NCBI GenBank assembly: GCA_030602665.1
Contig: JAUVZE010000001.1
Span: 1 to 29,023 of the forward strand
Length of the DNA stretch: 29,023 bases
Reading direction: 5' to 3'
DNA from: Dehalococcoidia bacterium
GTDB lineage: Bacteria; Chloroflexota; Dehalococcoidia; Dehalococcoidales; JAUVZE01
The translations under genes were made by a program, and so were the position numbers. Below, piece after piece: positions 2,894-29,023 of this stretch. Below the pieces are notes generated by a model. That model did no database searches. It was not told the origin of the DNA and saw nothing but the letters and a program-made list of their open reading frames with translations. The first letter of the stretch is position 1. Each line of letters starts with the position of its first letter.

Positions 2894-2937
2894 ACAATAT
2901 ATTCGGGATACCATTAAATAAAGGCAAGTATAACTAA

Positions 2938-9005: not shown

Positions 9006-10253
9006 TTATCTTGCCTTCTCCTTTCGGTATTGTTTTATCAGTTCCAGCATTCTCTGGCCAATGAAATCGCTGTCCTCAACACGCTCGCTCCCATAGATTT
9101 CAATACGACCAGGCAGACCCTTCAGCCCCTCTCTTAATATTCGCAAGGACTCTTTCTCCTTATTCCCCGCCAAGAGAAGGACACACGGAAATCCCAACCT
9201 CTTGGGGAGTTCTTCTCTCAGCACCTTGACTAAGGCATGAGCATGATGCCACTGCTCCTGATTAGCTATCATGAAGCCGGCCAATAGGTAACCTTCAATA
9301 TTGGGCTGAGATAGAACTACTTTGGCCACCCGGTAAACCTTGGAAGCCACCGGATTGCCACTCGTGTCAGCAAAATTCGCCGGCTTGAGACCCACCCGGC
9401 TAAGTGCGTCCATCCCTATCATGGCTGCCCCACCACCGATGGCATGGAAGCCAATGAATCCGGTGCTGGTTTCATCCAATGTCATCTTCATGACAAACCC
9501 CGAACCACGAAGGTCAGTTTCCTCAATCCCCCAGCCAACCCTGTCAAAATCAGTCGCTTCCCAGGGAAATTCTCTAGGGATAGTGATTCCCATCTCAGGG
9601 TGACGGAAGGTTGAGTTATCATCAATACCCATGCGGCAGTCTCCAGCAATCACTCTACCCTCTTGAGTCAATATTAGAGGATTGATTTCCAGAATATTGC
9701 AATCACGCTTCTTAAAGACTTCCACAACCTTAGAAATCACCCCCGCCACTTCCCCCAGCAATTGATTTGGAATACCAGCACTGCTAGCCAGGTTCAAAGC
9801 ATCATAGATAGGAAACCCTTTAAGATAATCAATCTCAGCCCGGAAGATTTTGTCCTCAGGAACTTCTTCTATATCCATCCCCCCTTGAGTGCTAAACATA
9901 ACTACCGGAGCCTGGCTCTTCCACGAGGAATCAGGAATTACACCGACATAATATTCCTTCTCAATGTTCAATTTCTCCTCTACCAACACCTGCCGGACGG
10001 GAAATCCTTTTACTTCCATGCCTAAAATAACGCTGGCCGCCTTCTCTGCTTCCTCGGGCGTGTCAGCAAACTTTATCGCACCGGCTTTCCCACGTCCTCC
10101 AACCCAAACCTGTGCCTTTACCACGACAGGTTTCCCTACTCTAGCAGTAACTTCATATGCCTCTTTGGCAGTTGAGGCAACCTCCCCTGTTGGAATGGCA
10201 ATGCCAACATCTTTGAGAAACTCCTTTCCTTGGTATTCAAATAGCCTAGCCAT
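9006..10253 (-). CDS. ADP-forming acid:CoA ligase beta subunit (ATP-grasp; SucC/ACL-beta family, ACL-like substrate domain)
   Basis: 'RLFEYQGKE', 'VVVKAQVWVGGRGKAGAIK', 'LEINPL' and 'IGGGAAM', 'NFADTSGNP', 'MIANQE'. Confidence 0.88.
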   Translation of the reverse strand: MARLFEYQGKEFLKDVGIAIPTGEVASTAKEAYEVTARVGKPVVVKAQVWVGGRGKAGAIKFADTPEEAEKAASVILGMEVKGFPVRQVLVEEKLNIEKEYYVGVIPDSSWKSQAPVVMFSTQGGMDIEEVPEDKIFRAEIDYLKGFPIYDALNLASSAGIPNQLLGEVAGVISKVVEVFKKRDCNILEINPLILTQEGRVIAGDCRMGIDDNSTFRHPEMGITIPREFPWEATDFDRVGWGIEETDLRGSGFVMKMTLDETSTGFIGFHAIGGGAAMIGMDALSRVGLKPANFADTSGNPVASKVYRVAKVVLSQPNIEGYLLAGFMIANQEQWHHAHALVKVLREELPKRLGFPCVLLLAGNKEKESLRILREGLKGLPGRIEIYGSERVEDSDFIGQRMLELIKQYRKEKAR

Positions 10254-13700: not shown

Positions 13701-14954
13701 TTGGCAAATGAAAGTGTTTTAGTTATCGGAGGGGGTGTAGCTGGGGTATCCTCAGCATTGAAGCTGGCTGAGAATGGTTTCCAGGTTTATCTAGTAGAAA
13801 GAGGGCCGATAATAGGGGGGCAGGCTGCGGTATTCTGTTGCAAGGCAACCGAAACATGTAGCCAATGCTCTGTCTGTCTGGTGCCTGAAAAGATACTGGA
13901 GGTGGCAGCTAATTCCCAGATTTCGCTTGTGGTCAATTCGGAAGTGGTGGGAATAAGCGGTGGAATTGGTGATTTCAAGGTTGACTTGCTTCAAAAGCCT
14001 GGATTCGTTGACCCTGAGAAGTGTATCGCCTGTGGAATCTGCACGGAACTTTGCCCCTGTGAACCTCAAAAGGGGATTTATTTGCCGTTTCCGGAAACAG
14101 CGCCTCGCACATATATAATCGACAAAAATCAATGCCTTCGCTTTAAAGGGGCCGAGTGTAATGTTTGCCAAGATAACTGTCCGGCGGGAGCTATCGACTT
14201 TGAACAGAAACCTAAAGAATTAGAGGTTAGTGCAGTAATTGTGGCCACCGGTTTCGAGGTCTTTGATGCTAGAGAAAAGGGATTGCTAGGCTATGGCAGG
14301 TATTCCAATGTACTCACTGGGCTTGACCTTGAGAGGATATTTGCCACTGGTGACTCGGTCACCTTGCCTTCAAGCGGGGAATGCCCCCGGAATATTGCCT
14401 TTATTCAGTGTGTTGGTTCACGGGACGAGTATATTGGTAATGGCTACTGCTCTCAGGTATGCTGCAAATACGCTATGAGATTCGCTAAGCTTCTGCAATA
14501 TCAGAATCCTGAGGCAAAGGTAACCATATTCTACATAGACCTTCAGACTGCAGGAAAAGGCTTCGGCGAATTCTACAAGGAATGTAAGGAAACCATCCGA
14601 TTTGTCCGAGGCATACCGGTGGAGGTTTGCAAGCTCTCCCCTAATGAGCTAGAGGTTAAATACGAAGACCTTACCAAAGGGAAAATTACCAAAGAGAGCT
14701 ACGACCTGGTAGTCCTATCGGTAGGCACCGCCCCCAGAAAAGACTCTTGGGATTTAGCCAGGGTTTTAGGCATCAACTTAGGGGATTATGGGTTTTTTGA
14801 CACTCAGGACACCCTAGACAGCAGCAGAACCAACGTCAATGGCATCTTCCTAGCTGGAACCTGTCAGGGGCCAAGGGACATACCTGAATCCATAGCTCAC
14901 GGTATTCAGGCAGCATCTAAGGTCATCCAGACCTTAACAGCGAGGGCTATTTAA
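13701..14954 (+). CDS. hdrA: HdrA/QmoA-like flavoprotein 1 (FAD domain with inserted 2x[4Fe-4S])
   Basis: GGGVAG, CIACGICTELCP, CLRFKGAECNVCQDNCP, 'IQCVGSRD...YCSQVCC', 'GTCQGPRDIP'. Confidence 0.88.
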   Translation: MANESVLVIGGGVAGVSSALKLAENGFQVYLVERGPIIGGQAAVFCCKATETCSQCSVCLVPEKILEVAANSQISLVVNSEVVGISGGIGDFKVDLLQKPGFVDPEKCIACGICTELCPCEPQKGIYLPFPETAPRTYIIDKNQCLRFKGAECNVCQDNCPAGAIDFEQKPKELEVSAVIVATGFEVFDAREKGLLGYGRYSNVLTGLDLERIFATGDSVTLPSSGECPRNIAFIQCVGSRDEYIGNGYCSQVCCKYAMRFAKLLQYQNPEAKVTIFYIDLQTAGKGFGEFYKECKETIRFVRGIPVEVCKLSPNELEVKYEDLTKGKITKESYDLVVLSVGTAPRKDSWDLARVLGINLGDYGFFDTQDTLDSSRTNVNGIFLAGTCQGPRDIPESIAHGIQAASKVIQTLTARAI

Positions 14955-16628
14955 GTGGATAATGGGTTAAAATTAGGCGTTTTCCTCTGTGATTGCGGTG
15001 GTACTTTATCAAAAGTCACCGATTTTTCGGCTATCAAAGCGAAACTGCAAAAACTCTCCGATGTTACCTATGTAGGCATAAGCCATGACCTGTGCCTTAA
15101 GAGAGCGCAGCAGGCAATGCAAAAGGACATCAAGGATAAAGGCATCAACAGGGTTGTTGTTGCTGCTTGCTCACCAGAGCTCCACGAAAATGATTTCATG
15201 AATGTAGTCCAGTCAGCCGGAGTGAATCGGCACCTTCTCTCTATGGCAAACATCAGGGAGCAATGCTTTTGGGCTCACCCAGACAAGGGCAAGGCTGCCA
15301 AAAAAGCAATGACCCAAATAGGGATGGCTATAAATAGAGCACGATTTTTGGAGCCTGTGGAACAGACACAAATTTCAGTAAATAAGGATGTTTTAGTAAT
15401 CGGTGGTGGTATAACGGGTATCCAGGCAGCTATTGAACTCTCTAACCTGAATTTAAAGACCACTCTTGTAGAAAAAGAAGCTACCTTGGGAGGCAAGCTA
15501 AATCGGTTTGCCAACCTCTATCCAGTCCAGGTTAGTCCGGAAGAGGTGCTAGCCACAAAACTAAAGCAGGTTGCCGAGAGTCAAAACATCTATGTTTTGA
15601 CCTCTGCTGAGCTTATAGATGTAAGTGGGGAAGTAGGAAACTTCTCAGCACGGATAAAGAGAGGGAATGGAGAATTTGTGCGAAATTTTGGGGCTATTAT
15701 CTTTGCCACTGGCTACACCACTCAATTCTCAAGCCAAATCTACGGGCTTGAACTTTCAAACAATATCATCACTCAATCTCAACTGGAAGAGATGCTTAAA
15801 TCTTCCAGTGAAGTTAAACAAATACCCAAGAGTGTATGCTTCGTCACAGATATCTCCGATGAACATTCCCGAGTTTCACCCCTTTCTGCTTTGAGGAATG
15901 CTTTAGGCATCAAGGAGAAGTTCAGAGGTGAAGTCTGCGTATTGTGCCAGAATTTGAAGGTTGATGGCGCTGGCCTAGAGAAGCTTTACCGTGATTGCCG
16001 AAATAAGGGGGTGCTCTTTATCAAGTTTGACAATTCACCGAGAATCTCGAAGCAGGACGGGAAAATAAAAATCGAGGTAGAGGATGTTTTAATGTCAGGG
16101 GAGCAGGTGACCCTACCTTGTGACCTTCTTGTGGTAGAAGAAACATCCGTGCCACCTCTGGATTCTAAGGTTCTAGGTTCTACTCTATATATGGGTCTTG
16201 ATGCACAAGGTTTCTATCAGGAGAACAACGTTCATCTTTACCCCACGGCTTCAAATAGAGAAGGGATTTTCTTCGCTGGAAATTGCCACGCAGATTTAGA
16301 CCTGATGCAGGCATTGACCGACGCAAGCAATGTGGCATTGAGTGCCTACCAGCTCCTAGCCCAGGGGAAGATAGCTGTTGAAGCAGAAAAGGTGATGGTC
16401 GACCCTAATAAGTGCCGCTTTTGCTTAACCTGTATCCGTGCCTGCCCTCATCATGCGATTCAAGAAGCTAAGGTGAACCACGAAAAAATGGTTGCCCAGA
16501 TTGCAGACCTTGCTTGCCAAGGCTGCGGTATTTGTGCTGTAGTTTGCCCGGCTAAAGCCATAAAACCCAAAGATTGGAGCGACGAGCAAATACTAGCTGA
16601 ATTTGAGCTATTGGGAGAATATGTATGA
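14955..16628 (+). CDS. hdrA: HdrA/QmoB-like flavoprotein 2 (N-terminal Fe-S domain, FAD domain, C-terminal 2x[4Fe-4S])
   Basis: 'GVFLCDCG...HDLC...AACS...IREQC', GGGITG, CRFCLTCIRACP, CQGCGICAVVCP. The FAD-proximal Cys motif is degenerate. Confidence 0.85.
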   Translation: MDNGLKLGVFLCDCGGTLSKVTDFSAIKAKLQKLSDVTYVGISHDLCLKRAQQAMQKDIKDKGINRVVVAACSPELHENDFMNVVQSAGVNRHLLSMANIREQCFWAHPDKGKAAKKAMTQIGMAINRARFLEPVEQTQISVNKDVLVIGGGITGIQAAIELSNLNLKTTLVEKEATLGGKLNRFANLYPVQVSPEEVLATKLKQVAESQNIYVLTSAELIDVSGEVGNFSARIKRGNGEFVRNFGAIIFATGYTTQFSSQIYGLELSNNIITQSQLEEMLKSSSEVKQIPKSVCFVTDISDEHSRVSPLSALRNALGIKEKFRGEVCVLCQNLKVDGAGLEKLYRDCRNKGVLFIKFDNSPRISKQDGKIKIEVEDVLMSGEQVTLPCDLLVVEETSVPPLDSKVLGSTLYMGLDAQGFYQENNVHLYPTASNREGIFFAGNCHADLDLMQALTDASNVALSAYQLLAQGKIAVEAEKVMVDPNKCRFCLTCIRACPHHAIQEAKVNHEKMVAQIADLACQGCGICAVVCPAKAIKPKDWSDEQILAEFELLGEYV

Positions 16629-17050
16629 AGGCAAAGGGAGCCTTTTTGCCTGATATTGTTGCTTTCTGTTGCGCCCAGTCTGCTTACCAGGCAGCAGATA
16701 CAGCCGGTTCTATGAGGATTACCTACCCGGAGAATATTAGGGTTATTCGGGTTCCCTGTGCCGGAAGAGTGGATGTGCTTCACATCTTGAGAGCCTTTGA
16801 AAAGGGCGCTGATGGGGTACTGGTCTTAGGCTGCCATGAGGAAGCCTGCCGCCACCTTTCTGGCAATATCAGGGCCAAGAATAGAGTTCAGAGGGTGAAT
16901 ACCCTTTTGCAAGAAGTGGGAATAGACGGCAAGCGTGTTGAGATGTTCACTCTGGCACCAAATCAGGGTTCCAGATTTGCCCGCATAGCCAATGAAGTGA
17001 ATGAGAGAATAAAAGAGCTAGGTCCAAGTCCTGTAAAATCAGGGGCCTAG
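16625..17050 (+). CDS. mvhD: MvhD/FlpD-family [2Fe-2S] protein 1
   Basis: 'FCCAQSAY', 'RVPCAGR', 'GADGVLVLGCHEEACRH'; ATGA overlap with hdrA2. Confidence 0.9.
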   Translation: MKAKGAFLPDIVAFCCAQSAYQAADTAGSMRITYPENIRVIRVPCAGRVDVLHILRAFEKGADGVLVLGCHEEACRHLSGNIRAKNRVQRVNTLLQEVGIDGKRVEMFTLAPNQGSRFARIANEVNERIKELGPSPVKSGA

Positions 17051-17064
17051 GGGGAGATGATGAA

Positions 17065-17721
17065 ATGATAGTAGCCGAAAGAAAGCCTCTAGAAGATATT
17101 AGAGAGATGATAGCTGGGTATAAGAAGATATTGATAGTGGGCTGTGGCACTTGTGTCACCATTTGTTGGGCTGGTGGAGAAAAAGAGGTGGCAGTGCTTT
17201 CCTCTCAGCTTAGGCTAGCTTCTAAGAAAGATGGTAATGAGCTTGAAATCTTGGAAGCTACTATTGAGAGGCAATGTGAGAAGGAATTGGTAGAGGCACT
17301 GAAAGACAAGGTGCAGCAAGTAGAGGCGGTTCTGTCCATGGGATGTGGGGCTGGAGTGCAGCCTATTGCCGAGATATTCCCAGATATGCCAGTCTACCCA
17401 GCACTAAATACCACGTTTGTGGGAATGCCTGAGGGGGAAGGAGTGTGGGTGGAAACTTGTAGAGCCTGTGGCGATTGTTTTCTGGATAAGACAGGAGGGA
17501 TTTGTCCTATTGTGAGGTGTGCCAAAGGGCTGCTCAATGGGCCTTGCGGTGGCACAAACAATGGCAAGTGCGAGATAGACTCAGAGAAGGACTGTGCTTG
17601 GACGCTCATTTATCGGAGACTTGAGCAACAGGGAAGGCTCGATGCGATGCGGAAGTATTATCCGCCGAGGAATTTCCAGGCAGTGATAAGGCCTGGGAAA
17701 GTTGAGACCTTACCAGCATAA
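17065..17721 (+). CDS. metV: Methylene-THF reductase small Fe-S/Zn subunit MetV
   Basis: 'GCGTCVTIC', 'GCGAG', 'CRACGDC', 'CPIVRCAKGLLNGPCGG...CE...CAW'; directly upstream of metF. Confidence 0.92.
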   Translation: MIVAERKPLEDIREMIAGYKKILIVGCGTCVTICWAGGEKEVAVLSSQLRLASKKDGNELEILEATIERQCEKELVEALKDKVQQVEAVLSMGCGAGVQPIAEIFPDMPVYPALNTTFVGMPEGEGVWVETCRACGDCFLDKTGGICPIVRCAKGLLNGPCGGTNNGKCEIDSEKDCAWTLIYRRLEQQGRLDAMRKYYPPRNFQAVIRPGKVETLPA

Positions 17722-17735
17722 AAGGGGTGTGAGCC

Positions 17736-18626
17736 ATGGCTAAAGCATTTAAAGAAACCCTCAACTCAGGAAAATTCGTAGTGACGAGCGAGATTGGACC
17801 TCCAAAAGGGACCAATCTTGAGAAATTGATTCACCACATTGACCTTCTTAAGGACAAGGTGGATGCCCTGAATGTGACTGACAACCAAAGCTCAGTGATG
17901 CGCTTCCCTTCATTAGGAACTTGTCTACTCATTAAAGAGCGTGGCGGGGAGCCGATTCTGCAGATGACCTGTCGTGACCGCAACCGTATGGCACTTGAGG
18001 CAGACCTTCTCTTTGCTTACACCAGAGGAATTAAAAATGTTCTTTGCCTTACTGGCGATTTTATTACTATAGGTGACCATAAAGAGGCCAGAGCCGTCTT
18101 TGACCTTGATTCACTTCAGTTACTTCATATGGTACGTATCCTGCAATCAGGCAAAGACCTAGGAGGAAACGAACTAGACGGAGCGGTAGAGTTTTGTGCT
18201 GGTGCTACTGTTACCCCAGAGGCAAACCCTATCGAGCCTCAGCTCATCAAATTTGAAAAGAAGGTTCAGGCAGGAGCCGAATTTTTCCAGACGCAAGCAA
18301 TTTACGACCTTGATAACTTCAAGAAGTTTATGAAATATGTCCGTGGGCTAGACAAAAATATCAAAATTTTAGCTGGCATAGTGCTTTTGGCCTCAGCAGG
18401 AATGGCAAAATATATGAATGAAAATACCCCCGGTGTTTTCGTCCCGCAAGTTTTGATTGATGAGATGGCAACTGCTGAGAAAGGCAAGCGTGTTCAAAAG
18501 GGTATTGAGATTGCCGGCCGACTCATCAGGCAAATAAAAGAAGAAGCTATCTGTGACGGAGTCCATATCATGGCTATTGGCAGAGAAGAGGTAGTTCCTG
18601 ATATTTTAGCGGCAGGTGGACTTTAG
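17736..18626 (+). CDS. metF: Methylene-THF reductase MetF (canonical residues intact)
   Basis: 'TSEIGPPKG' (catalytic Glu), 'QMTCRDRNR', 'LTGD', 'FFQTQAIYD', 'GVHIM'. Confidence 0.93.
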   Translation: MAKAFKETLNSGKFVVTSEIGPPKGTNLEKLIHHIDLLKDKVDALNVTDNQSSVMRFPSLGTCLLIKERGGEPILQMTCRDRNRMALEADLLFAYTRGIKNVLCLTGDFITIGDHKEARAVFDLDSLQLLHMVRILQSGKDLGGNELDGAVEFCAGATVTPEANPIEPQLIKFEKKVQAGAEFFQTQAIYDLDNFKKFMKYVRGLDKNIKILAGIVLLASAGMAKYMNENTPGVFVPQVLIDEMATAEKGKRVQKGIEIAGRLIRQIKEEAICDGVHIMAIGREEVVPDILAAGGL

Positions 18627-18673
18627 CCAGCGGAAGTAAAGTATTCAAAACTTAGGAGCCAGAGGAGGCGAAG

Positions 18674-19168
18674 ATGGGAACTATAGTGTTAAGTGAGCTA
18701 GACCCCAAATTTAAGTATGAAGTCGCTGAGCAACCGGGGGGTGAGAATATTAAGGTCTGCTTCTCTTGTGGGCTTTGCACTGCTGGCTGCCCAGTTTCAG
18801 AAATCGATGAGAACTACAATCCAAGAAAGATTATTCACATGGTGTTACTTGGGATGAGAGAGCAGGTTCTCTCTTCCGATTTCATCTGGCTCTGCTCTCT
18901 GTGTTATACCTGTTATGCCCATTGCCCTCAAAATGTCAAATTCACCGATGTCATGCGCGCCTTGAGAACTATGGCAGTGAAAGAGGGTTATGTTCATCCC
19001 TCCTTTCCTGACCGGATAAAGGAAATTGATAATCTTTCTCAAAAATTGCGGCAGCAAATGGCACTGTCCATTTTGAGGAGAAAATCAGAGGATGCTAGTA
19101 TAAACCCAGCAGAGTTGCTGGCTAAAGCTTCACGGGAAGTAGAGAGAGCTAAGTCTCCCGTTTCTTAA
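18674..19168 (+). CDS. hdrC: HdrC-like 2x[4Fe-4S] protein
   Basis: CFSCGLCTAGCP, 'NPRKIIHMVLLG', 'IWLCSLCYTCYAHCP'. Confidence 0.9.
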   Translation: MGTIVLSELDPKFKYEVAEQPGGENIKVCFSCGLCTAGCPVSEIDENYNPRKIIHMVLLGMREQVLSSDFIWLCSLCYTCYAHCPQNVKFTDVMRALRTMAVKEGYVHPSFPDRIKEIDNLSQKLRQQMALSILRRKSEDASINPAELLAKASREVERAKSPVS

Positions 19169-19191
19169 ACTGAAGGGAGCAAGGAAAGTTC

Positions 19192-22100
19192 ATGAAATCA
19201 GGACCATCAGAAAATAAGCAAGTAGGGGCGGTACTGGTAGTGGGTGGTGGGATAGGAGGAGTACAGGCAGCACTTGATTTAGCTGAGTCTGGTTACTATG
19301 TTTACCTGGTAGAGAAATCTCCTGCCATTGGCGGGGTTATGGCTCAACTTGACAAGACCTTCCCTACCAACGATTGCTCTATGTGCATCCTTTCGCCCAA
19401 GCTTGTAGAGTGCGGAAGGCATCTCAACATTGAGCTAATAACTAATGCTGAGCTAAAGGAAGTCTCAGGAGAGCCGGGACAGTTTAAGGTTAAGATTCTG
19501 ACAAAATCACGATATATCGATACTCAGAAATGCACCGGCTGTGGTGAATGCGTTCAAGTCTGTCCCGTGGAGGTCGATAGTGAATTTGACGTGGGGTTAA
19601 CCAAGAGAAAGGCAATCTTTATACCCTATCCTCAGGCAGTCCCCAGCATTTTCACCGTTGACAAGAAGGAAAGACCGCCGTGCGTGAGAACTTGCCCGGC
19701 ACATGTAAATGTCCAGGGATACATAGCTCTTACCTCCAAGGGGAAGTACAAAGAGGCTCTAGAACTGGTCAAGGAGAACCTCCCCCTGCCAGGGGTATTG
19801 GGGAGGATCTGTCCCCACCCCTGCGAATCCAAATGCAATAGAGCGCCTCTTGATGAGCCTCTGGCTATTGCAAGCATCAAGCGGTTCATAGCGGACCAAG
19901 CTAAGGATGAGCTGCTCCCTCAGGTAAAGACGGAGAGAAAAGATGAGAGGGTTGCCATTGTCGGTTCTGGCCCTGCAGGGCTTACCGCCGCTTACCAACT
20001 GGCAAAGGAAGGATATGGGGTAACTGTGTTTGAGGCCTTGCCCGTTGTTGGTGGGATGCTATATGTCGGAATACCTGAATATCGTCTTCCTAAGGGGGTA
20101 TTGGAGCAAGAGGTTGAAGCTATCAAGCACATGGGCATCGAGATAAAAACCAACACCCCTATAGGCAAAGACTTAACCTTGGATACTCTCTTCACTCAAG
20201 GGTATAAAGCGATGTTTATTGCAGTTGGTGCTCACAAAAGCTTGGAGCTTGGTATCCCTGGAGAGCATGCTGCTGGTGTAGTTCAAGGTGTGGCATTCTT
20301 AAGGGAAATGAATTTGGGGAAGGAAGTAAGACTTGGGAGGAAGGTTGCCATAATTGGTGGCGGTAACGTAGCCATTGATGCAGCCAGAAGTGCACTTCGC
20401 TTAGGCGCTCAAAAGGTTTTCATCCTCTATCGCCGCTCTAGAATGGAGATGCCAGCAAGCGATGAGGAAATAGAGGCGGCTTTAACCGAAGGGGTTGAAA
20501 TACAGTATTTGGTTGCCCCAACAGAGGTTCTGGTTAAGGAGGTTAAGGATGGAAAGGTGGTGGGCATAAGGTGTATACAGATGGAGCTAGGGGCACCTGA
20601 TGCCACAGGGAGGAGGAGGCCAATACCCATCCCGGGCTCCGAGTTTGATATAGAAGCAGACATGATTATCCCTGCTATCGGTCAAGCTCCCGACCTTTCC
20701 TTCCTCGAAGGCTCAGGGGTAACACTCAGCAGAAGGGGCTTGATAGATGTCAACCCAATTACCCTTGCCACCAGTCGACCCGGTGTTTTCGCCGGGGGAG
20801 ATGCCCAAACTGGACCTGGGATAGCTATTGAAGCGGTGGCAGCAGGAAACAGGGCAGCAGTTTCCATCATAAGATACCTCAAAGGCGAGGATTTGAGAGA
20901 GGGGAGAGAAATAAAGGAAGAGGAGATTAGACCTCTCGGTTTGAGCGAACTCCCCGTGGGAGAGCCGAGGAAGCCCCGGGTACAAATGCCAACTATCAAG
21001 CCAGAAAGAAGGCAAAACAGCTTTGATGAGGTTGAGCTAGGCTTCACTGAGGAGACGGCTCTTCAGGAAGCAAAGAGGTGCCTTAACTGTGGGATCTGCT
21101 CCGAGTGTCTCCAGTGTGTCGCTGCCTGCAAAGCCGAAGCCATCGACCACGAGATGCAAGACAAGATGATAGAGATAAAGGTGGGGGCGGTGATAGTTGC
21201 TGGTGGCTACGAACTTTTTGACCCAAGCGTCCAATATGAACTCGGCTATACCAGGTCCCCCAACGTGGTAACCAGCCTAGAATTTGAACGTATATTAAGC
21301 GCCTCCGGTCCATTCCAGGGAACCTTGTTAAGACCTTCGGATTTAACCCCACCGCAAAAGATGGCCTTTATTCAATGTGTTGGCTCCAGGGATGCCCAAA
21401 ACCCCTATTGCTCTTCAGTATGCTGTACCTATGCTATTAAAGAGGCCATTATCGCCAAAGAGCATAGCACTGTTCCTCTGGATGTGACTATTTTCTTTAT
21501 GGATATGAGAACCTATGGTAAGGATTTTGATAGATATTATGACCGTGCCAAAGAGGAGAGTCAGGTTAAGTTCGTCAGGGCAAAGGTACATGACATTGAA
21601 GAGAAGGATGGCACTGGAGACTTAGTAGTCAAATTTGCCACAGAGGATGGGGGGATAAGGGCAGAGGATTTTAATTTGGTTGTCCTTTCTGTCGGCTTCC
21701 AAGCCTCCCCAGGGATGGTCGACCTAGCCAAGAAACTGGGGGTTCAGCTAAATCCCTACGGTTTCTGCCAAACCGGAAGTTTTTCCCCAGTTGAAACCTC
21801 AAAACCAGGCATATTCGTCTGCGGCGCCTTCAGTGGACCCAAAGACATCCCTGAGACAGTTATGCAGGCTAGCGGAGCAGCGGGAAGCGCTTCGGCTTTA
21901 CTTGCTCCTGCCCGCAAGACATTAGTCAAGGAGAAGGTATATCCTCCGGAAAAGGATGTCGCAGGGGAAGAGCCAAGGATTGGTATCTTCGTTTGCCACT
22001 GCGGAATCAACATCGGCGGGGTGGTAAATGTTCCTGAGGTGAGGGAATATGCAGCCACCTTGCCCAATGTCGTCTTCACCGATGCTAACCTCTATACCTG

Positions 22101-23658
22101 CTCTCAGGATACGCAGGAAAAAATAAAGGCAATGATTGAAGAACACAACCTCAACCGGGTGATAGTAGCCTCATGCTCTCCCAGAACTCATGAGCCTTTG
22201 TTTCAGGAGACTATTAAAGAGGCAGGCTTGAATAGATACCTATTTGAGATGACTAATATCCGTGACCAGTGCTCTTGGGTTCATATGCATGAGCCGGAGA
22301 AAGCTACCGAGAAGGCAAAAGACCTAGTGAGGATGGCAGTAGCCAAAGCGAGGCTGATTGAACCACTGAGACAATTGTCCCTCAGTATCAACCACTCAGC
22401 CTTGGTCATAGGTGGTGGAATATCAGGGATGGTGAGTGCCCTGACTTTAGCAGAGCAGGGATTTAAAGTGCACTTAGTGGAGAGGAATAGTGAGCTTGGT
22501 GGGATAGCAGGGAGGATACATTACACCTTAGAGGGTGGAAATGTTCAAGCTTATTTAGCTGGTCTTATTGAAAAGGTTACTAACCATGACTTAATTGAAG
22601 TATATACTAATGCTTATATTGTGGATGCCTCTGGTTATGTGGGAAATTTCACCACAGAGTTAATGAGGTATCGTGGGCCATATGTTGAGAGAATTGAACA
22701 CGGGGTAGTTATCATAGCCACAGGAGGTCAAGAATATAGACCTGATGAATATCTTTATGGGAGAGACCCCAGAGTGCTCACCGCTCTTGAGCTAGAGGAA
22801 GAAATAGCTAAGGGCAATCCAGACATCACTGATTGCAACAACTTGGTGATGATTCAATGTGTAGGCTCTCGCCATGACCAAAGACCCTACTGTAGCAAGG
22901 TATGTTGTAGCCAGGCGATAAAGAATGCTTTAAAGCTAAAAGAGATAAAGCCTGAGATGGAAATCTATATACTTTATAGAGATATGAGGACCTATGGGTT
23001 TAAAGAAGATTATTATCAGGAGGCTCGTCGCCGAGGGGTGATATTCCTCCGCTACGATTTGGATAAGAAACCTGAAGTCAGAGCGGTGAGGGAAAATGGC
23101 CAATATCTGCTGAAAGTAAAAGTTTACGACCCTGTAATAGGTGAACAAGTCCTTATCAATGCGGATATACTGGCTTTAGGTGTGGCTACAATCCCTTCAG
23201 CCGAAATTAGAGAATTGGCTCAGTTTTATAAGGTGCCTCTAAATGAGGACGGCTTCTTTGTAGAAGCCCATGTAAAGCTCCGCCCGGTTGATTTCGCTAC
23301 TGAGGGTGCTTTTGTATGCGGTCTAGCTCATGCGCCAAAGTCTATAGAAGAGAGCATTGCGCAGGCTAAAGCAGCCGCCTCACGGGCTACTACCATACTG
23401 GTTAAGGATACGATAACTGCTGAAGGCATAGTCTGCTCGGTAAATGAAGACATTTGCAGCGGCTGCGGTATCTGCGAGGTGCTTTGCCCTTATTTAGCTA
23501 TTGCCGTTGATAAAACAGAGAGGGTAGCCAAGGTTAATGAAGCACTGTGTAAAGGCTGTGGGACTTGCTGCGCTGCTTGCCCTTCCGGCGCTGCTCAACA
23601 ACGAGGCTTTAGAAGGGACCAGATATCTTCCATGATTAGTGCTGCTTTGGGGGTATAG
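19192..23658 (+). CDS. hdrL: HdrL-type large flavoprotein: two HdrA modules with an inserted GltD/NfnB-like NAD(P)H module
   Basis: 'LDKTFPTNDCSMC', GltD-like 'CVRTCP...GRICPHPCESKC...GSGPAG...GIPEYRLP...GGGNVA...YRR', two 'QCVGSR..YCSxVCC' motifs, 'VCHCG...REQC-like' domain, and C-terminal CSGCGICEVLCP and CKGCGTCCAACP. Confidence 0.9.
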   Translation: MKSGPSENKQVGAVLVVGGGIGGVQAALDLAESGYYVYLVEKSPAIGGVMAQLDKTFPTNDCSMCILSPKLVECGRHLNIELITNAELKEVSGEPGQFKVKILTKSRYIDTQKCTGCGECVQVCPVEVDSEFDVGLTKRKAIFIPYPQAVPSIFTVDKKERPPCVRTCPAHVNVQGYIALTSKGKYKEALELVKENLPLPGVLGRICPHPCESKCNRAPLDEPLAIASIKRFIADQAKDELLPQVKTERKDERVAIVGSGPAGLTAAYQLAKEGYGVTVFEALPVVGGMLYVGIPEYRLPKGVLEQEVEAIKHMGIEIKTNTPIGKDLTLDTLFTQGYKAMFIAVGAHKSLELGIPGEHAAGVVQGVAFLREMNLGKEVRLGRKVAIIGGGNVAIDAARSALRLGAQKVFILYRRSRMEMPASDEEIEAALTEGVEIQYLVAPTEVLVKEVKDGKVVGIRCIQMELGAPDATGRRRPIPIPGSEFDIEADMIIPAIGQAPDLSFLEGSGVTLSRRGLIDVNPITLATSRPGVFAGGDAQTGPGIAIEAVAAGNRAAVSIIRYLKGEDLREGREIKEEEIRPLGLSELPVGEPRKPRVQMPTIKPERRQNSFDEVELGFTEETALQEAKRCLNCGICSECLQCVAACKAEAIDHEMQDKMIEIKVGAVIVAGGYELFDPSVQYELGYTRSPNVVTSLEFERILSASGPFQGTLLRPSDLTPPQKMAFIQCVGSRDAQNPYCSSVCCTYAIKEAIIAKEHSTVPLDVTIFFMDMRTYGKDFDRYYDRAKEESQVKFVRAKVHDIEEKDGTGDLVVKFATEDGGIRAEDFNLVVLSVGFQASPGMVDLAKKLGVQLNPYGFCQTGSFSPVETSKPGIFVCGAFSGPKDIPETVMQASGAAGSASALLAPARKTLVKEKVYPPEKDVAGEEPRIGIFVCHCGINIGGVVNVPEVREYAATLPNVVFTDANLYTCSQDTQEKIKAMIEEHNLNRVIVASCSPRTHEPLFQETIKEAGLNRYLFEMTNIRDQCSWVHMHEPEKATEKAKDLVRMAVAKARLIEPLRQLSLSINHSALVIGGGISGMVSALTLAEQGFKVHLVERNSELGGIAGRIHYTLEGGNVQAYLAGLIEKVTNHDLIEVYTNAYIVDASGYVGNFTTELMRYRGPYVERIEHGVVIIATGGQEYRPDEYLYGRDPRVLTALELEEEIAKGNPDITDCNNLVMIQCVGSRHDQRPYCSKVCCSQAIKNALKLKEIKPEMEIYILYRDMRTYGFKEDYYQEARRRGVIFLRYDLDKKPEVRAVRENGQYLLKVKVYDPVIGEQVLINADILALGVATIPSAEIRELAQFYKVPLNEDGFFVEAHVKLRPVDFATEGAFVCGLAHAPKSIEESIAQAKAAASRATTILVKDTITAEGIVCSVNEDICSGCGICEVLCPYLAIAVDKTERVAKVNEALCKGCGTCCAACPSGAAQQRGFRRDQISSMISAALGV

Positions 23659-23659
23659 C

Positions 23660-24088
23660 ATGGATGGGTTTGAGCCCAAAATCATAGGCTTTTGCTGCAA
23701 CTGGTGTGCTTATGCTGGTGCTGACTTGGCTGGGATAGGTCGGATTCAGTATCCCCCTAACCTGAGGATGATAAGGGTGATGTGTTCCGGAACAATTGAG
23801 CCAGTATATGTCTTGGAAGCTTTTCAGAAGGGAGCCGATGGGGTCTTCATCGGAGGTTGTCACCCGGGGGATTGCCACTACCAAGCTGGAAATTATAAGA
23901 CCATGAGGAAGGTTATCTTGATGAAAAGACTGCTCTCTCAACTGGGGATAAGCCCTAAGAGGTTGAGACTGGAGTGGGTATCGGCAGCAGAGGGACAACG
24001 ATTCGCTCAAGTGGTTACCGACTTTATTGCCGAGGTAAAAGAACTGGGACCGAATCCATTGAATCAAGAGGTTGCTCAACATGGATAA
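23660..24088 (+). CDS. mvhD: MvhD [2Fe-2S] protein 2 (hydrogenase delta subunit)
   Basis: 'GFCCNWCAYAGAD', 'RVMCSG', 'GCHPGDCHY', 'EWVSAAEG'. Start set at ATG 23660, just after the hdrL stop. Confidence 0.93.
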   Translation: MDGFEPKIIGFCCNWCAYAGADLAGIGRIQYPPNLRMIRVMCSGTIEPVYVLEAFQKGADGVFIGGCHPGDCHYQAGNYKTMRKVILMKRLLSQLGISPKRLRLEWVSAAEGQRFAQVVTDFIAEVKELGPNPLNQEVAQHG

Positions 24089-25073
24089 AAAGATAAAGCT
24101 AGCTATTGGGCTGGGTGCCACATGTGCTGGATGTGACATCGCCATATTAGACCTTAATGAAAAGATTCTTGATTTGGCTTCCTTAGCTGATATTGTTTTC
24201 TGGCCAACGGCGATGGATTTCAAGCTCTCAGAATTGGAAAAGATAGAGAAAAACGAGATTGATATAAGTCTTTATCATGGTACTGTAAGAACCTCCGAGC
24301 ATGAACATATTGTTCACCTTTTAAGAGAGAGGTCCAAGGTTATAATTGCTTTCGGCTCGTGCTCTTGTTTTGGAGGCATTCCTGGACTTTGCAATCTCAC
24401 CAGTAAGGAAGAGATATTTGAAACTGCGTATAAAGAAACCCCGTCTACGGTAAATCCAGAATTTATTACCCCTAAAACTAAGGTTTCCCAAGATGGTCAT
24501 GACCTTACCTTACCGGAACTCTATAATGATGGAAGGGCATTGTCCCAAATTGCAGATGTGGATTACTACCTGCCAGGGTGTCCTCCAGCAGTGGAGCTGA
24601 TTGAGAGACTGATACCCATAATAAGCAACTTTCTGGAAACAGGCGAACTCCCACCTAAAGGCACAGTGATTGCCTCCGATAAGACGCTCTGTGACGAATG
24701 CCCTCTCACCAAAGAGAACAAAATGGTCTCAAGGATTTTTAGACCCCATGAGATTATCCCTGACCCTAAAAGGTGCTTGCTGGAACAAGGGATATTATGT
24801 ATGGGGCCTGCCACCAGAGGGGGCTGTGGTTCCAGATGCATCAATGTTGGTATGCCCTGCAGAGGGTGTATGGGACCTACAGCCGAGGTCAGAGACCAAG
24901 GGGCTAAAATGGTCTCGGCTATAGCTTCAATCCTAGGGGCAGAGAATGAGAAGGATTTGTCTGAAGATGATGTAGAGAAACTAATGGACCAGATTAAGGA
25001 CCCCGTGGGCACCTTCTATAGATTCAGTTTGCCAGTAGCCTTAGTCAATAAAAGAATAAAGGAAGGTAGTTAA
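24081..25073 (+). CDS. mvhG: Group 3c [NiFe]-hydrogenase small subunit
   Basis: 'CAGCDIAILDL', 'FGSCSCFGGIPGLCN', 'YLPGCPP', 'LCDEC...CLLEQGILCMGPATRGGC...C...MPCRGCMG'. Confidence 0.92.
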   Translation: MDKKIKLAIGLGATCAGCDIAILDLNEKILDLASLADIVFWPTAMDFKLSELEKIEKNEIDISLYHGTVRTSEHEHIVHLLRERSKVIIAFGSCSCFGGIPGLCNLTSKEEIFETAYKETPSTVNPEFITPKTKVSQDGHDLTLPELYNDGRALSQIADVDYYLPGCPPAVELIERLIPIISNFLETGELPPKGTVIASDKTLCDECPLTKENKMVSRIFRPHEIIPDPKRCLLEQGILCMGPATRGGCGSRCINVGMPCRGCMGPTAEVRDQGAKMVSAIASILGAENEKDLSEDDVEKLMDQIKDPVGTFYRFSLPVALVNKRIKEGS

Positions 25074-25076
25074 AGA

Positions 25077-26558
25077 ATGGCACAAGCCCAACAGCCTAAA
25101 TCAAAGCGGATTACTATTGAGCCCATAACCAGATTGGAGGGTGAGGCCAAGATAGATATATTCCTAAACGACGAGGGGAATGTGGATAATGCCTACTTTC
25201 AAGTAGTTGAGTTGCGAGGTTTTGAGAGGTTTTGCCAAGGGAGGCCGGTAGAGGAGATGCCTCGGATAACTACCAGAATCTGTGGTGTTTGCCCTGGTGC
25301 TCACCACATGGCTTCCTCTAAGGCAGTAGACGCTGTCTTTAATGTAGACCCACCAGAACCAGCAAAAAAACTAAGGGAACTCTTCTATTGCGCCCATATG
25401 CTCCATAGCCACATTGCCCACTTTTATGCCTTAGCCGGACCGGATTTTGTCCTAGGACCAGATGCCGACCCTTCAAAGAGGAATATCCTTGGCGTTATAG
25501 AAGCAGTCGGCTTAGATACCGGGAAGAAGGTTATTGCTGCTCGGGGCTATGCCCAGAGAATCCAAGAGATGATTGGTGGCAAAGCTACCCATCCAGTTTG
25601 TGGTCTCCCTGGAGGAATGTCTAAAGCGATAACAGAGGAAGAACGAAAAGAAATAGAAGAGATGGCTAAATCTTTGATAGACTTTGCCAAGTTTTCCCTA
25701 CAGTTAGTAGATGACTTAATTCTAAAGAACAAAGTCTATATGGATTTGATTACTGGCGACATTTACCACCATGAAACATATTATATGGGTATGGTGGATG
25801 AGAATAACAAGGTGAACTTCTATGATGGAGATATAAAGGTAGTAGACCAGAAGGGCAAGGAATATGCCAAGTTTAAGCCAAAGGACTACTTAAACTACAT
25901 TGAGGAGCATGTCGAACCTTGGTCATATCTCAAGTTCCCTTATCTAAAGGGTATAGGATGGAAGGGATTGGTTGATGGCAAGGATAGCGGCATTTACAGG
26001 GTCAACTCCTTGGCTCGGTTAAATGTAGCCGATGGCATGGCTACCCCCTTAGCCCAAGAGGCGTATGATAGGATGTTTGACATACTAGGGGACAAGCCAT
26101 CGCACGCCACACTAGCATTTAACTGGGCACGGATTGTGGAGATTATGTATGCTTCAGAGAGGCTGCTGGAATTAGCCACAGATAAGGACATTACCAGTAA
26201 AGATATTAGAACTATCCCCAAAGAGAAGCCAGGTGAAGGACTTGGCTGTGTGGAAGCACCCCGGGGAACATTATTCCATCATTATTGGTCAGATGAAGAG
26301 GGAATCATTAAGAAAGTAAACCTTATTGTGGCTACTGGGCAGAATAATGGACCCATGTGCATGTCGGTAAAGAAGGCAGCCCAGAGCCTCATCAAAAACT
26401 GGAAGGTTGACCAGGGACTCCTGAACATGGTGGAGATGGCATTCAGGGCTTATGACCCCTGCCTGGCTTGCGCTACCCATACATTACCTGGACATATGCC
26501 TTTGGAGGTCATTATCCGTGACCCTAAGGGCAAGATAGTGGAACAACTAAGGCAATAG
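25077..26558 (+). CDS. mvhA: Group 3c [NiFe]-hydrogenase large subunit
   Basis: 'IEPITRLEGE', L1 'RICGVCPGAH', 'VEAPRGTLFHHY', L2 'RAYDPCLACATH' followed by a cleavable C-terminal tail. Confidence 0.95.
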   Translation: MAQAQQPKSKRITIEPITRLEGEAKIDIFLNDEGNVDNAYFQVVELRGFERFCQGRPVEEMPRITTRICGVCPGAHHMASSKAVDAVFNVDPPEPAKKLRELFYCAHMLHSHIAHFYALAGPDFVLGPDADPSKRNILGVIEAVGLDTGKKVIAARGYAQRIQEMIGGKATHPVCGLPGGMSKAITEEERKEIEEMAKSLIDFAKFSLQLVDDLILKNKVYMDLITGDIYHHETYYMGMVDENNKVNFYDGDIKVVDQKGKEYAKFKPKDYLNYIEEHVEPWSYLKFPYLKGIGWKGLVDGKDSGIYRVNSLARLNVADGMATPLAQEAYDRMFDILGDKPSHATLAFNWARIVEIMYASERLLELATDKDITSKDIRTIPKEKPGEGLGCVEAPRGTLFHHYWSDEEGIIKKVNLIVATGQNNGPMCMSVKKAAQSLIKNWKVDQGLLNMVEMAFRAYDPCLACATHTLPGHMPLEVIIRDPKGKIVEQLRQ

Positions 26559-26564
26559 GGCATG

Positions 26565-27437
26565 TTAAAATCCGGCAGCATCCAAGACTGCTCCCACTCT
26601 GGACTCCCAACCCATAGCCATGATATGGATTCCCTGGCACATATCTTTCATTTCATTAATCAAGCGAGCGGCTATTTCAACGCTTTTTTGAACTTTGTCT
26701 TCAGCTTCCTCCATCTCGTCAAGAAGCTCGTCAGGGACATAGATGCCGGCAATGTTCCTGTTCATAAATCTTGCCATGGATGCCGACTTAAGTAACATTA
26801 TACCAACCAACACTGGCACGCTGAGCTTTTTAGCCTCCTGCATGAATGTTTCAAACTTCTTGGGTTCGTAAATAGCCCGAGTTTGAAAAAACTGGGCGCC
26901 AGCTTTAGCCTTTTTCTCCATTTTGATAAGCTCTGGTTCTACAGGCTCAGCCCCTGGCGTAACACAAGCCCCGAGGAAGAAGTGAGGAGCACCCCTCAGC
27001 TCCTTACCAGCCAAGTCTTTGCCTTGCTCCAATCCTCGGGCAGCTTGGAGTAAGGAAGCAGAATCATCAAGGTCAAAGACAGGCTTAGCCTGTTGTCGGT
27101 GGTCACCCGAATCAATATCGTCACCGGTGAGGCAAAGGATATTCTGAATGCCAAGAACATAAGCGTTAAGTAAGTCAGATTGTAAGGCGATTCGGTTACG
27201 GTCACGACAGGTCATGTGCAAGACCGGCTCTATGCCTTTTTGTTTAAGCAGACAGCAACCAGCTAATGAGCCCAATCTCATCACGGCGCTTTGCTGGTCG
27301 CTGACATTAACTGCATCAACCTTGCCCCGTAATAGTTCAACATTATTGAGAAATTCAGTGACATCCACGCCCTTAGCCGGGTCAATCTGAACAGTGACGG
27401 CGAACTTACCACTTTCAAGCACTTCACGTAGACTCAT
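26565..27437 (-). CDS. MetF-fold flavoprotein paralog with substituted folate-binding residues
   Basis: Aligns with the first MetF over its full length ('HMTCRDRNR', 'LTGD', 'GIHIM') but has 'TVQIDP' and 'FFQTRAIY'. Confidence 0.85.
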   Translation of the reverse strand: MSLREVLESGKFAVTVQIDPAKGVDVTEFLNNVELLRGKVDAVNVSDQQSAVMRLGSLAGCCLLKQKGIEPVLHMTCRDRNRIALQSDLLNAYVLGIQNILCLTGDDIDSGDHRQQAKPVFDLDDSASLLQAARGLEQGKDLAGKELRGAPHFFLGACVTPGAEPVEPELIKMEKKAKAGAQFFQTRAIYEPKKFETFMQEAKKLSVPVLVGIMLLKSASMARFMNRNIAGIYVPDELLDEMEEAEDKVQKSVEIAARLINEMKDMCQGIHIMAMGWESRVGAVLDAAGF

Positions 27438-27510
27438 TTTGTGACAAACCTCCTTCGGGTATACTTAGCCCCACCCATTTTATCATAATTAAAGCCAACA
27501 AACCTCGCAA

Positions 27511-27539
27511 ATTATAAATCCGCGGCCTTGGTTTTTCAA
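27511..27539 (-). promoter_or_regulatory. Sigma70-type promoter of the MetF paralog
   Basis: TTGAAA (27539-27534), 17 bp, TATAAT (27516-27511); AAGGAGG SD at 27455-27449. Confidence 0.7.
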
Positions 27540-27599: not shown

Positions 27600-27688
27600 T
27601 TAGGCTTTATCTTCCTCATCCAGTGCCTTTCTGGTAAACTCAACTACCTTTTCCCTGTCCAGACCTATGATGCTTCCTTTATCTCTTG
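27600..27688 (-). pseudogene. Frameshifted, truncated N-terminal cap of a methyltransferase corrinoid protein (MttC/MtgC-like)
   Basis: Reads QEIKEA in one frame, then IIGLDREKVVEFTRKALDEEDKA* in the next. This matches the cap-domain pattern 'EAII..D.EKV.ELT.KALDEG'. No start codon. Confidence 0.55.
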
Positions 27689-27726
27689 ACGAAAAGCTGG
27701 TGGTATTGCCAGCGATGTATTTTCGG

Positions 27727-29023
27727 CTATAGGGGCGGTTTGTCCATGCCGTATTTTCCTGCAGCCTTTGTCATGATTCTTATAAGCTCTCTATCAATGT
27801 CTTCGTCAAGGGGTTCCGGCTGGTGTGTAGCCAAGATTCTTTTGACCTCCTCCTTTGCTCGCTGCTCTGCCGTGGTAGCCCCCTTTTCCATCCACACCTG
27901 ATCCTTTTCCCGACTGATTACCGGCCCGGGGTAGAAAAACTCCTCTCTAAACCATTTCATAGTAGTCGGGGAGAGCAGGAAATGGTCTCCTTCATATAAT
28001 CTCTCGGTAAACAGGTCTTCCGCCAGGCGTTCCCCCCTTGGAGTAATCCCCCGCACCAGGCGGCGGGCCATCCCGCAAATCTCATTATCAATCACCAACT
28101 TTTCCAGGCTTTGAGCAGTCTCAAAATTCAGCATCCCTGCGCCCGATATTATGTTGGCCTGGCTGAGACTAGCCAAGATAATACCCATTCCCATCTCCAG
28201 TCCCGCTTGCGAATCAGGGCACTTGGCATCACAGCCCATAGTGACCCCGGTTGGCATTCCAAGGTATTTCCCCACCTCGTTGCAGGCTATATTCATCATC
28301 GCCGTCTCAAGGGCTCCCAGAGGTGTGGTGCCCCAGTGCATATCAAAGATTACTGGGCTGGCTCCCCAGATGATGGACGAGCCCCGGCTGGTAAGCTGGC
28401 TTATCACCACCCCAGTTAGGTTCTCGGCAGCGTGCTGAACAACACATCCTCCCATTGTGACCGGAGCTGTAGCCCCAGCTAAAGGCATGGGTATTAGTAT
28501 TGACGGAATCCAGTTCTCAGCACCTCGTATCAGGGCATGGCAGCAAAGTTCAGTCCACTTCAGGGGGGATGAGGGGCAAACTGAAAGGATGAGCAAGGGT
28601 TTCTCTTGGAGAGCCCTCTCACTACCCCGAATGGCCACCAAGAAATCCTTAAATACTTCAAAGCTCTCTTTGACATAAAGCGAGGCCCCGACCGACTTAG
28701 TCGAATACCTCAGGGATAAACAGACCTTGTGGCAATCCCAGACCTCTTTTGGGAGCTCAGTGCCAAAGAAGGGGAGCTGCCCATCTATATTGTCAAGGGC
28801 ATCAACCAGCTTGATATGGTTGATGGCGTCCTCGGTGAGAGACTCCCTGAACTGGTTCAGCTCTGAGTCCCATATTGTAGGAGTCGGCATGCCGTTAAAA
28901 TAGAAGTTGTTCCCCTCCGAATTCATGTCAAGGCTGCCGTTTCGGTCATAGAGCTTGATTGATGATGGAACCGACTTTAGCGATTCCTCAACCAGTCTCT
29001 TGGGAATAAAAGCTCTCTTTTTC
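27727..29023 (-). CDS. mttB: Trimethylamine methyltransferase (MttB) superfamily, non-pyrrolysine; 5' end outside the window
   Basis: 'SSPLKW', 'MPLAGATAPVTMGG', 'TTPLGALET', 'DAKCPDSQAGLEM', 'GAGML...SLEKLVIDNEI', 'GDHFL'. The frame stays open to the window edge (KKRAFIPKRLVEESLKSVP...). Confidence 0.92.
   Translation of the reverse strand, partial: KKRAFIPKRLVEESLKSVPSSIKLYDRNGSLDMNSEGNNFYFNGMPTPTIWDSELNQFRESLTEDAINHIKLVDALDNIDGQLPFFGTELPKEVWDCHKVCLSLRYSTKSVGASLYVKESFEVFKDFLVAIRGSERALQEKPLLILSVCPSSPLKWTELCCHALIRGAENWIPSILIPMPLAGATAPVTMGGCVVQHAAENLTGVVISQLTSRGSSIIWGASPVIFDMHWGTTPLGALETAMMNIACNEVGKYLGMPTGVTMGCDAKCPDSQAGLEMGMGIILASLSQANIISGAGMLNFETAQSLEKLVIDNEICGMARRLVRGITPRGERLAEDLFTERLYEGDHFLLSPTTMKWFREEFFYPGPVISREKDQVWMEKGATTAEQRAKEEVKRILATHQPEPLDEDIDRELIRIMTKAAGKYGMDKPPL

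Follow-up and report, generated by a model that had tools for sequence, protein, structure and literature searches.

A conserved group of MTHFR look-alikes in marine Dehalococcoidia with glutamine at the catalytic acid position

We found that MetF2, the second MetF protein encoded in the window, belongs to a small conserved group of MTHFR look-alikes in marine Dehalococcoidia, in which the catalytic glutamate of the family is replaced by glutamine (hereafter the Q clade). The window is a complete 29-kb contig of a Dehalococcoidia MAG (0.89 Mb, 56% complete). Judged by its active-site residues, MetF2 is probably no ordinary reductase any more. As the best explanation, which we hold to be somewhat better than an even call, we propose a re-tooled MetF paralog that lost the canonical methylene-THF chemistry and kept a selected function, either in ligand binding or on a different substrate.

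No catalytic residue of the methylene-tetrahydropterin reductases is better supported than the glutamate at this position. The Q clade, a natural lineage, has fixed the inactivating amide there and still remains under purifying selection, which provides a ready-made case of either a pseudoenzyme or a repurposed enzyme, in the setting of the Wood-Ljungdahl C1 module of uncultured sediment Dehalococcoidia. The metF copies of such genomes can also not all be read as reductases in metabolic reconstructions. Full-text literature searches returned no published description of the Q clade.

Fold and active-site residues of MetF2

The open reading frame of MetF2 is intact, as the sequence-only reading had stated, and encodes 290 aa with the N-terminus MSLRE that is found in all homologs. 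It matches the MTHFR profile PF02219 end to end (profile positions 2-286 of 287). In the AlphaFold2 model (pLDDT 94, pTM 0.92), eight strands and helices make up a complete (beta-alpha)8 barrel, for which Foldseek returned the MTHFRs of T. thermophilus, E. coli and human as top matches (TM 0.72-0.82). Profile and barrel fold thus both place MetF2 in the MTHFR/MetF family, at 55% identity to MetF1 of the same contig and about 19% to E. coli MetF.

Residue equivalences were taken from an alignment that included E. coli K-12 MetF and, for position 187, from HMMER alignments to the T. thermophilus and human MTHFRs. Q17 of MetF2 corresponds to E. coli Glu28, D19 to Phe30, D106 to Asp120 and R187 to Gln183, the last falling on the Gln of the 'ITQ' motif. 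Codons and alignments bear out the two substitutions on which the sequence-only reading was built, as well as its statement that MetF1 keeps both residues. MetF2 has Gln17 in place of the catalytic general acid and Arg187 in place of the pterin-binding Gln. The counterpart of Asp120, which stabilises the iminium intermediate, is present as Asp106 in an LTGD motif. The equivalents of Lys172, Thr182 and His273 are kept, as are the positions that contact FAD in the E. coli enzyme.

Both substitutions hit positions that are strongly conserved in the family. Among 150 diverse family representatives, position 17 is Glu in 93% (138 aligned) and position 187 is Gln in 87%. MetF2 keeps 33 of the 36 positions that are conserved at 85% or more in this set, and departs from it by E17Q, Q187R and P21A. 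Since P21A is common to MetF2 and its canonical sister clade, E17Q and Q187R are the only lineage-specific departures from the family core. D19 lies just after strand beta1 (residues 13-18) of the model, two residues past Q17. It is not diagnostic in itself, because about 17 of the 150 representatives combine Asp or Glu at this position with Glu17. Two independent lineages also lack the glutamate, one with Gln (P0208) and one with Thr plus Asp (P0140); both lie on short contigs with no informative context.

Origin of the Q clade and selection on it

A search of 5.8 billion proteins yielded 120 close homologs. About 38 clusters form the Q clade; they are 78-100% identical to MetF2, nearly all 290 aa long and share the motif T-x-Q-[IV]-D-P. 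A sister clade of 80 clusters (72-82% identity, nearly all 288 aa) carries TAE-x-GP together with QTQ, and its members, where named, come from Dehalococcoidia or Chloroflexota. In a quick maximum-likelihood tree (IQ-TREE), the Q clade is monophyletic (aLRT 99) and nested in a Glu-bearing, 288-aa group of hydrogenase-linked MetVF sequences (aLRT 98), and MetF1-type sequences branch elsewhere. MetF2, which the sequence-only reading had called the paralog of MetF1, is hence not derived from MetF1 but descends from a different, hydrogenase-linked MetVF lineage.

The sequence-only reading had asked whether Gln17 and Arg187 occur together in a conserved clade. This holds for Gln17, which is fixed under purifying selection, but not for position 187, where the Q clade has Arg in 24, Gln in 13 and Gly in 1 cluster. 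The Arg codon CGG of MetF2 is one transition away from the CAG of other members. Because the earliest-branching group of the clade retains Gln187, the order of events was E17Q and G19D, along with other changes, followed by Q187R in some lineages. Gln17 is coupled not to Arg187 but to Asp19 and about a dozen further fixed changes, which the sequence-only reading had not noticed.

In total, 14 positions are fixed differently in the Q clade and the sister clade: E17Q, G19D, T46S, F73L, Q74H, Y107D, V108I, an inserted Arg114, P115Q, Q169E, V214M, R217K, K227R and L277W. Active sites of TIM barrels are located at the C-terminal strand ends and in the loops after them. In the modelled barrel, these strand ends and following loops comprise 56 of the 290 residues, yet they hold 8 of the 14 clade-fixed changes (hypergeometric p=0.0014). 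Positions that are merely relaxed, i.e. newly variable, show no such enrichment (2 of 15). As the newly fixed residues cluster in this region, they point to new constraint on the catalytic face rather than to drift.

Pairwise Nei-Gojobori estimates gave dN/dS values of 0.12-0.19 for the Q clade at dS 0.35-0.9, and of 0.017-0.06 for the sister clade (0.017 for one pair at dS 0.39). MetF2 is thus under purifying selection that is several-fold weaker than in its canonical relatives; the higher ratio is also compatible with a slow decay of constraint. Codons 17 (CAG/CAA), 19 (GAC/GAT) and 107 (GAT/GAC) vary synonymously within the clade, and neither a frameshift nor a stop was found in the approximately 38 clusters or in 16 inspected coding sequences. 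The possibility that Gln17 is private to this genome, through decay or assembly error, can therefore be set aside.

No Q-type copies were found in 60 GTDB genomes of the same order, in which the best matches were Glu-bearing MetV-MetF pairs with 55-62% identity. The MAG NIOZ-UU108 contains all three types, namely the Q type by mvhA, the sister type paired with MetV, and the MetF1 type accompanied by MetV and HdrA, adding up to three MetF matches and only two MetV matches. In a second MAG with seven MetF matches, the Gln/Asp combination is restricted to the mvhA-adjacent copy.

Gene neighbourhood, promoter and MetV

The location of MetF2 at the end of a MetV-MetF1-HdrC-HdrA-MvhD-MvhG-MvhA operon is summarised in Table 1. 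MetF2 is convergent with mvhA, the 3' end of this operon, in every Q-clade locus with sufficient flanking sequence, with one exception (L013, 3486-4652), in which mvhA is absent and MetF2 adjoins mvhG. In the window, the two stop codons are 6 bp apart (26559-26564), and the gap ranges from 9 to about 220 bp in other loci. As 6 bp leave no room for terminators, the transcripts of mvhA and MetF2 probably overlap as antisense.

Table 1. Features of the window around MetF2 and the MetVF-Hdr-Mvh operon.
Feature	Position	Strand	Remark
MetV-MetF1-HdrC-HdrA-MvhDGA operon	13701-26558	+	
metV plus metF1, canonical Glu-bearing MetVF pair of the operon	17065..18626	+	PF12225 and PF02219 matches
MetF1	17736-18626		E19 and FFQTQ kept
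mvhA, last gene of the MetVF-Hdr-Mvh operon	25077..26558	+	convergent with MetF2
MetF2 CDS, 290 aa, Q-clade (Gln17/Asp19) member of the MTHFR family	26565..27437	-	PF02219, E=1.6e-35
Codon 187, CGG = Arg, at the pterin-binding Gln (E. coli Gln183)	26877..26879	-	variable in the Q clade
Codon 107, GAT = Asp, immediately C-terminal to Asp106, the retained equivalent of E. coli Asp120	27117..27119	-	Asp in 33/38 Q-clade clusters, Tyr in 75/80 sister-clade clusters
Codon 19, GAC = Asp	27381..27383	-	Asp in 38/38 Q-clade clusters, Gly in 80/80 sister-clade clusters
Codon 17, CAG = Gln, at the catalytic acid position (E. coli Glu28)	27387..27389	-	Gln in 38/38 Q-clade clusters, Glu in 80/80 sister-clade clusters
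Conserved 5' leader with AAGGAGG ribosome-binding site, about 75 nt	27438..27510	-	conserved across 8 loci
Sigma-70-like promoter TTGAAA-17-TATAAT	27511..27539	-	11/12 consensus positions
MttB-family gene, incomplete at the contig end, 290 bp upstream of MetF2	27727..29022	-	PF06253

The mvhA neighbour persists despite at least five different upstream contexts and despite a diverged MvhAG module. In L003 and L017, this module is only 55-66% identical to that of the window, while HdrA and MvhD are about 90% identical (the HdrA/MvhD figure refers to L003), which suggests that the hydrogenase module was swapped in some Q-clade loci. The drop in MvhA/MvhG identity was seen at L003:11092-13535 and at L017/L187. 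The synteny may in part reflect shared ancestry, as every locus belongs to a single, rather narrow lineage (dS up to 0.9). A search based on MvhA, which avoids the ascertainment bias of starting from MetF2, again revealed a 290-aa MetF downstream of a 92% identical MvhA, and retrieved operons with 89% and 78% identical MvhA that lack MetF2. Because the same operon type occurs without it, MetF2 is a lineage-limited addition and not an obligate subunit gene of the operon.

The genes upstream of MetF2, in contrast, vary between loci and include MttB, an SRP54-domain gene, a chromate transporter with a tRNA, PrpD and others. The sequence-only reading had tied MetF2 to the MttB locus. MttB is found upstream only in the window and in the 99%-identical locus L012, and five MttB-family matches in the 56%-complete genome (G000; contigs C41, C18, C3 and C11) make such an adjacency cheap. 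The recurrent neighbour is the convergent mvhA end of the operon and not MttB. One of the MttB-family matches, C18:20806-22221, contains an in-frame TAA, and a pterin-binding methyltransferase is located 4 kb away. Behind mttB in the window lies a short open frame (27600-27726, minus strand) ending in ...REKVVEFTRKALDEEDKA*, directly beyond the stretch that other MetF2 loci have in common with the window.

ARAGORN detected no tRNA genes as insertion sites upstream of MetF2. In L008, Rfam reported a tRNA (2906-2974, minus strand, 35 bits) that ARAGORN did not, about 170 bp upstream of MetF2, and in L003 a fragment resembling a tRNA 3' end was read by eye upstream of the gene (about 9750-9790). 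Such a tRNA or tRNA fragment may point to a breakpoint, left by rearrangement or integration, at the upstream border of the MetF2 unit.

The promoter proposed from the sequence alone was recovered at the consensus match given in Table 1, with AAGGAGG 11 nt before the MetF2 ATG. A scan of the 1.4-kb region gave four promoter-like sites where 1.6 were expected. Both hexamers are invariant in eight aligned Q-clade loci, and similarity stops just upstream of the -35 box, beyond which the sequences are unrelated; in one more locus, L202, the upstream sequence differs. The leader matched no RNA element or riboswitch in Rfam, and its structure was not supported by compensatory pairs or covariation. 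An inverted repeat spans the -10 box (window 27506-27524; A4 columns about 300-320). It reads GTAGATT-TAT-AATCTAC in L013 and L017 and CGCGGATT-TAT-AATTTGCG in the window, with the right arm better conserved, and may represent an operator for a repressor.

No metV adjoins MetF2, here or in any Q-clade locus, so that MetF2 lacks the metV adjacency of MetVF-type (type II-IV) MTHFRs. In agreement with the sequence-only reading, genome-wide family searches of the 56% complete genome returned a single PF12225 match, beside MetF1. Complex prediction for MetV and MetF2 gave an ipSAE of 0.37 (runs 0.37, 0.41 and 0.31; best control 0.00), a range of weak reliability in which passes are more often wrong than right, so that the score counts neither for nor against a pairing. 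At least 92% of the contacts agreed between runs, and partner pLDDT was at least 92. When the tool was calibrated, 58 of 80 solved complexes passed this mark, as did 2 of 110 mismatched pairs; values of 0.60 or below were found in only 7 of the 80 solved complexes and in both passing mismatches. Close cousins of a true partner pass as well, and the PDB holds no MetV structure. FolD, looked for with a methenyl-THF ligand in mind, was not found in the window's own genome, of which 56% is covered.

The sister-clade MetF is always encoded in a same-strand operon with the small and large subunits of a [NiFe] hydrogenase, a HycI protease and MetV (L009:6303-10867, L010:6661-10867, also L018 and L020). 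This operon looks like a candidate for a directly hydrogenase-coupled methylene-THF reductase without Hdr, and in L009 it directly follows CODH/ACS, FolD and Fhs genes. Other arrangements exist as well. In a genome of the same family (L104; G002:C47:2073-6870), a [NiFe] hydrogenase large subunit is followed by a tandem pair of metV and a tandem pair of metF genes, all of them Glu-bearing. Three genomes of the same order (L197-L199; G049, G036 and G056) contain a three-gene unit of a GltD/NfnB-like module, MetV and a MetF1-like protein (72-76% identical to MetF1) without Hdr/Mvh genes.

Possible function and comparison with known systems

The exchange found in MetF2 has been studied in three reductases, in which Glu-to-Gln mutants lose 99.6-99.99% of kcat, retaining 0.01% (E. 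coli MTHFR), 0.2% (hMfr, a flavin-free Mfr) and 0.4% (jMer) with little change in Km, and Gln183Ala/Glu exchanges raise the folate Km more than 250-fold (PMC11094777). The oxidised E. coli E28Q protein has been crystallised in complex with methyl-THF (title of PDB 1ZP4). From the published mutants, 1ZP4 and the clade evidence, we infer that the canonical interconversion of methylene- and methyl-THF was lost and that a function depending on the active site was kept. The suggestion of the sequence-only reading that MetF2 is a repurposed or non-catalytic MetF-fold protein is, in light of these mutants, a fair one, apart from the linkage to MttB.

According to the explanation that we prefer, the MetF of a [NiFe]-hydrogenase-MetV-MetF operon gave rise to a clade without a MetV of its own, whose genes meet mvhA tail-to-tail where the MetVF-Hdr-Mvh operon ends and mostly have their own promoter. 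The catalytic face has been rebuilt by exchange of the general acid Glu for Gln, by a new Asp at +2 and another next to the Asp120 equivalent, and by altered strand-end residues, and the pterin-binding Gln has become dispensable. MetF2 would no longer interconvert methylene- and methyl-THF at a useful rate. With its cofactor binding presumably retained, it would have been preserved as an accessory protein or sensor that binds flavin and folate and serves the neighbouring C1 module, or as an oxidoreductase acting on another substrate. A more specific version, which is speculative and which we regard as rather improbable, pictures MetF2 as a naturally 'trapped' MTHFR barrel that would bind methyl- or methylene-THF beside its flavin without canonical turnover. 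The two new carboxylates would favour a cationic C1-pterin such as methenyl-THF as ligand. For the HdrB-less, hydrogenase-linked MetVF complex encoded next to it, MetF2 could then be a subunit that senses folate or has a gating role, or else a new flavin-dependent C1 oxidoreductase.

MetF2 might instead still work as a methylene-THF reductase or methyl-THF oxidase, with the acid moved to Asp19 or Asp107 and electrons supplied by the operon's MetV or another donor. We give this a modest chance of being right. Q17 and D19 appeared together on one branch and neither of them varies, the second new Asp adjoins the Asp120 equivalent, and residue 19 may, judging from its place just after beta1 in the model, face the same side as Q17; the retained FAD-contacting equivalents and the MetV-partnered nearest relatives also fit. 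To replace an acid only to resupply it is, however, less parsimonious, and since other family members combine Glu17 with Asp or Glu at position 19, this residue is no known substitute. Variation of the pterin-binding Gln (Arg, Gln, Gly) would be unexpected if folate were bound tightly, and dN/dS is several-fold above that of the canonical sister clade. This relaxed selection, the other MetF copies in the same genomes and the related contigs with the same operon type but without MetF2 could also indicate a redundant duplicate heading for loss, whose substitutions are tolerated damage with no function. Such simple decay is very improbable given the intact reading frames, dN/dS values of 0.12-0.19 sustained over dS up to 0.9, and new residues that are themselves invariant amid synonymous variation. 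The retention of 33 of 36 family-conserved positions and the conserved promoter and leader likewise speak against it.

Least probable is a role of MetF2 as methyl-THF-oxidising partner of the adjacent MttB-family methyltransferase, a reading that synteny has already largely refuted. It has published precedents in MetF paralogs tied to demethylation clusters, namely Ruegeria pomeroyi MetF2 (PMC12478193) and the Sphingobium MTHFR S6MTHFR (PMC11868366), and it draws on the MttB gene directly upstream on the same strand in the window and L012 and on the many MttB paralogs of the genome. The other Q-clade loci nevertheless show no such adjacency and have mutually unrelated upstream genes, and MetF2 has its own promoter, just upstream of which conservation ends. 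S6MTHFR moreover keeps Glu28, Asp120 and Gln183 (PMC11868366), and E. coli E28Q binds methyl-THF when oxidised (1ZP4).

The comparison with known systems shows where MetF2 stands apart. With the demethylase-coupled MTHFRs, S6MTHFR and Ruegeria MetF2, it shares a second MetF beside a C1-demethylation gene in this window only; S6MTHFR has the canonical residues, and the demethylase linkage of MetF2 is not conserved. MetF1 and MetV of the Hdr-Mvh-MetVF operon, which are related to the type IV MTHFR of Moorella thermoacetica, are encoded 9 kb away in the same genome. Although MetF1 is of the same family, it belongs to a separate clade, has retained Glu and Gln and shares a transcript with MetV and the Hdr/Mvh genes. 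Closest to MetF2 is the sister-clade MetF, a hydrogenase-linked MetV-MetF that resembles type II MetVF MTHFRs. It has the same length class and barrel, but retains Glu17, Gly19 and Tyr107 as well as Gln at the residue that matches position 187, and is encoded directly after metV. The E. coli MetF Glu28Gln laboratory mutant (1ZP4, 1ZPT, 1ZRQ) carries the same isosteric swap at the same position, and this mutant keeps FAD and binds methyl-THF with essentially no turnover. It is, however, an engineered single change in an NADH-dependent FAD enzyme, whereas MetF2 is a natural protein that descends from FMN-type, MetV-dependent enzymes and has about 14 further fixed changes.
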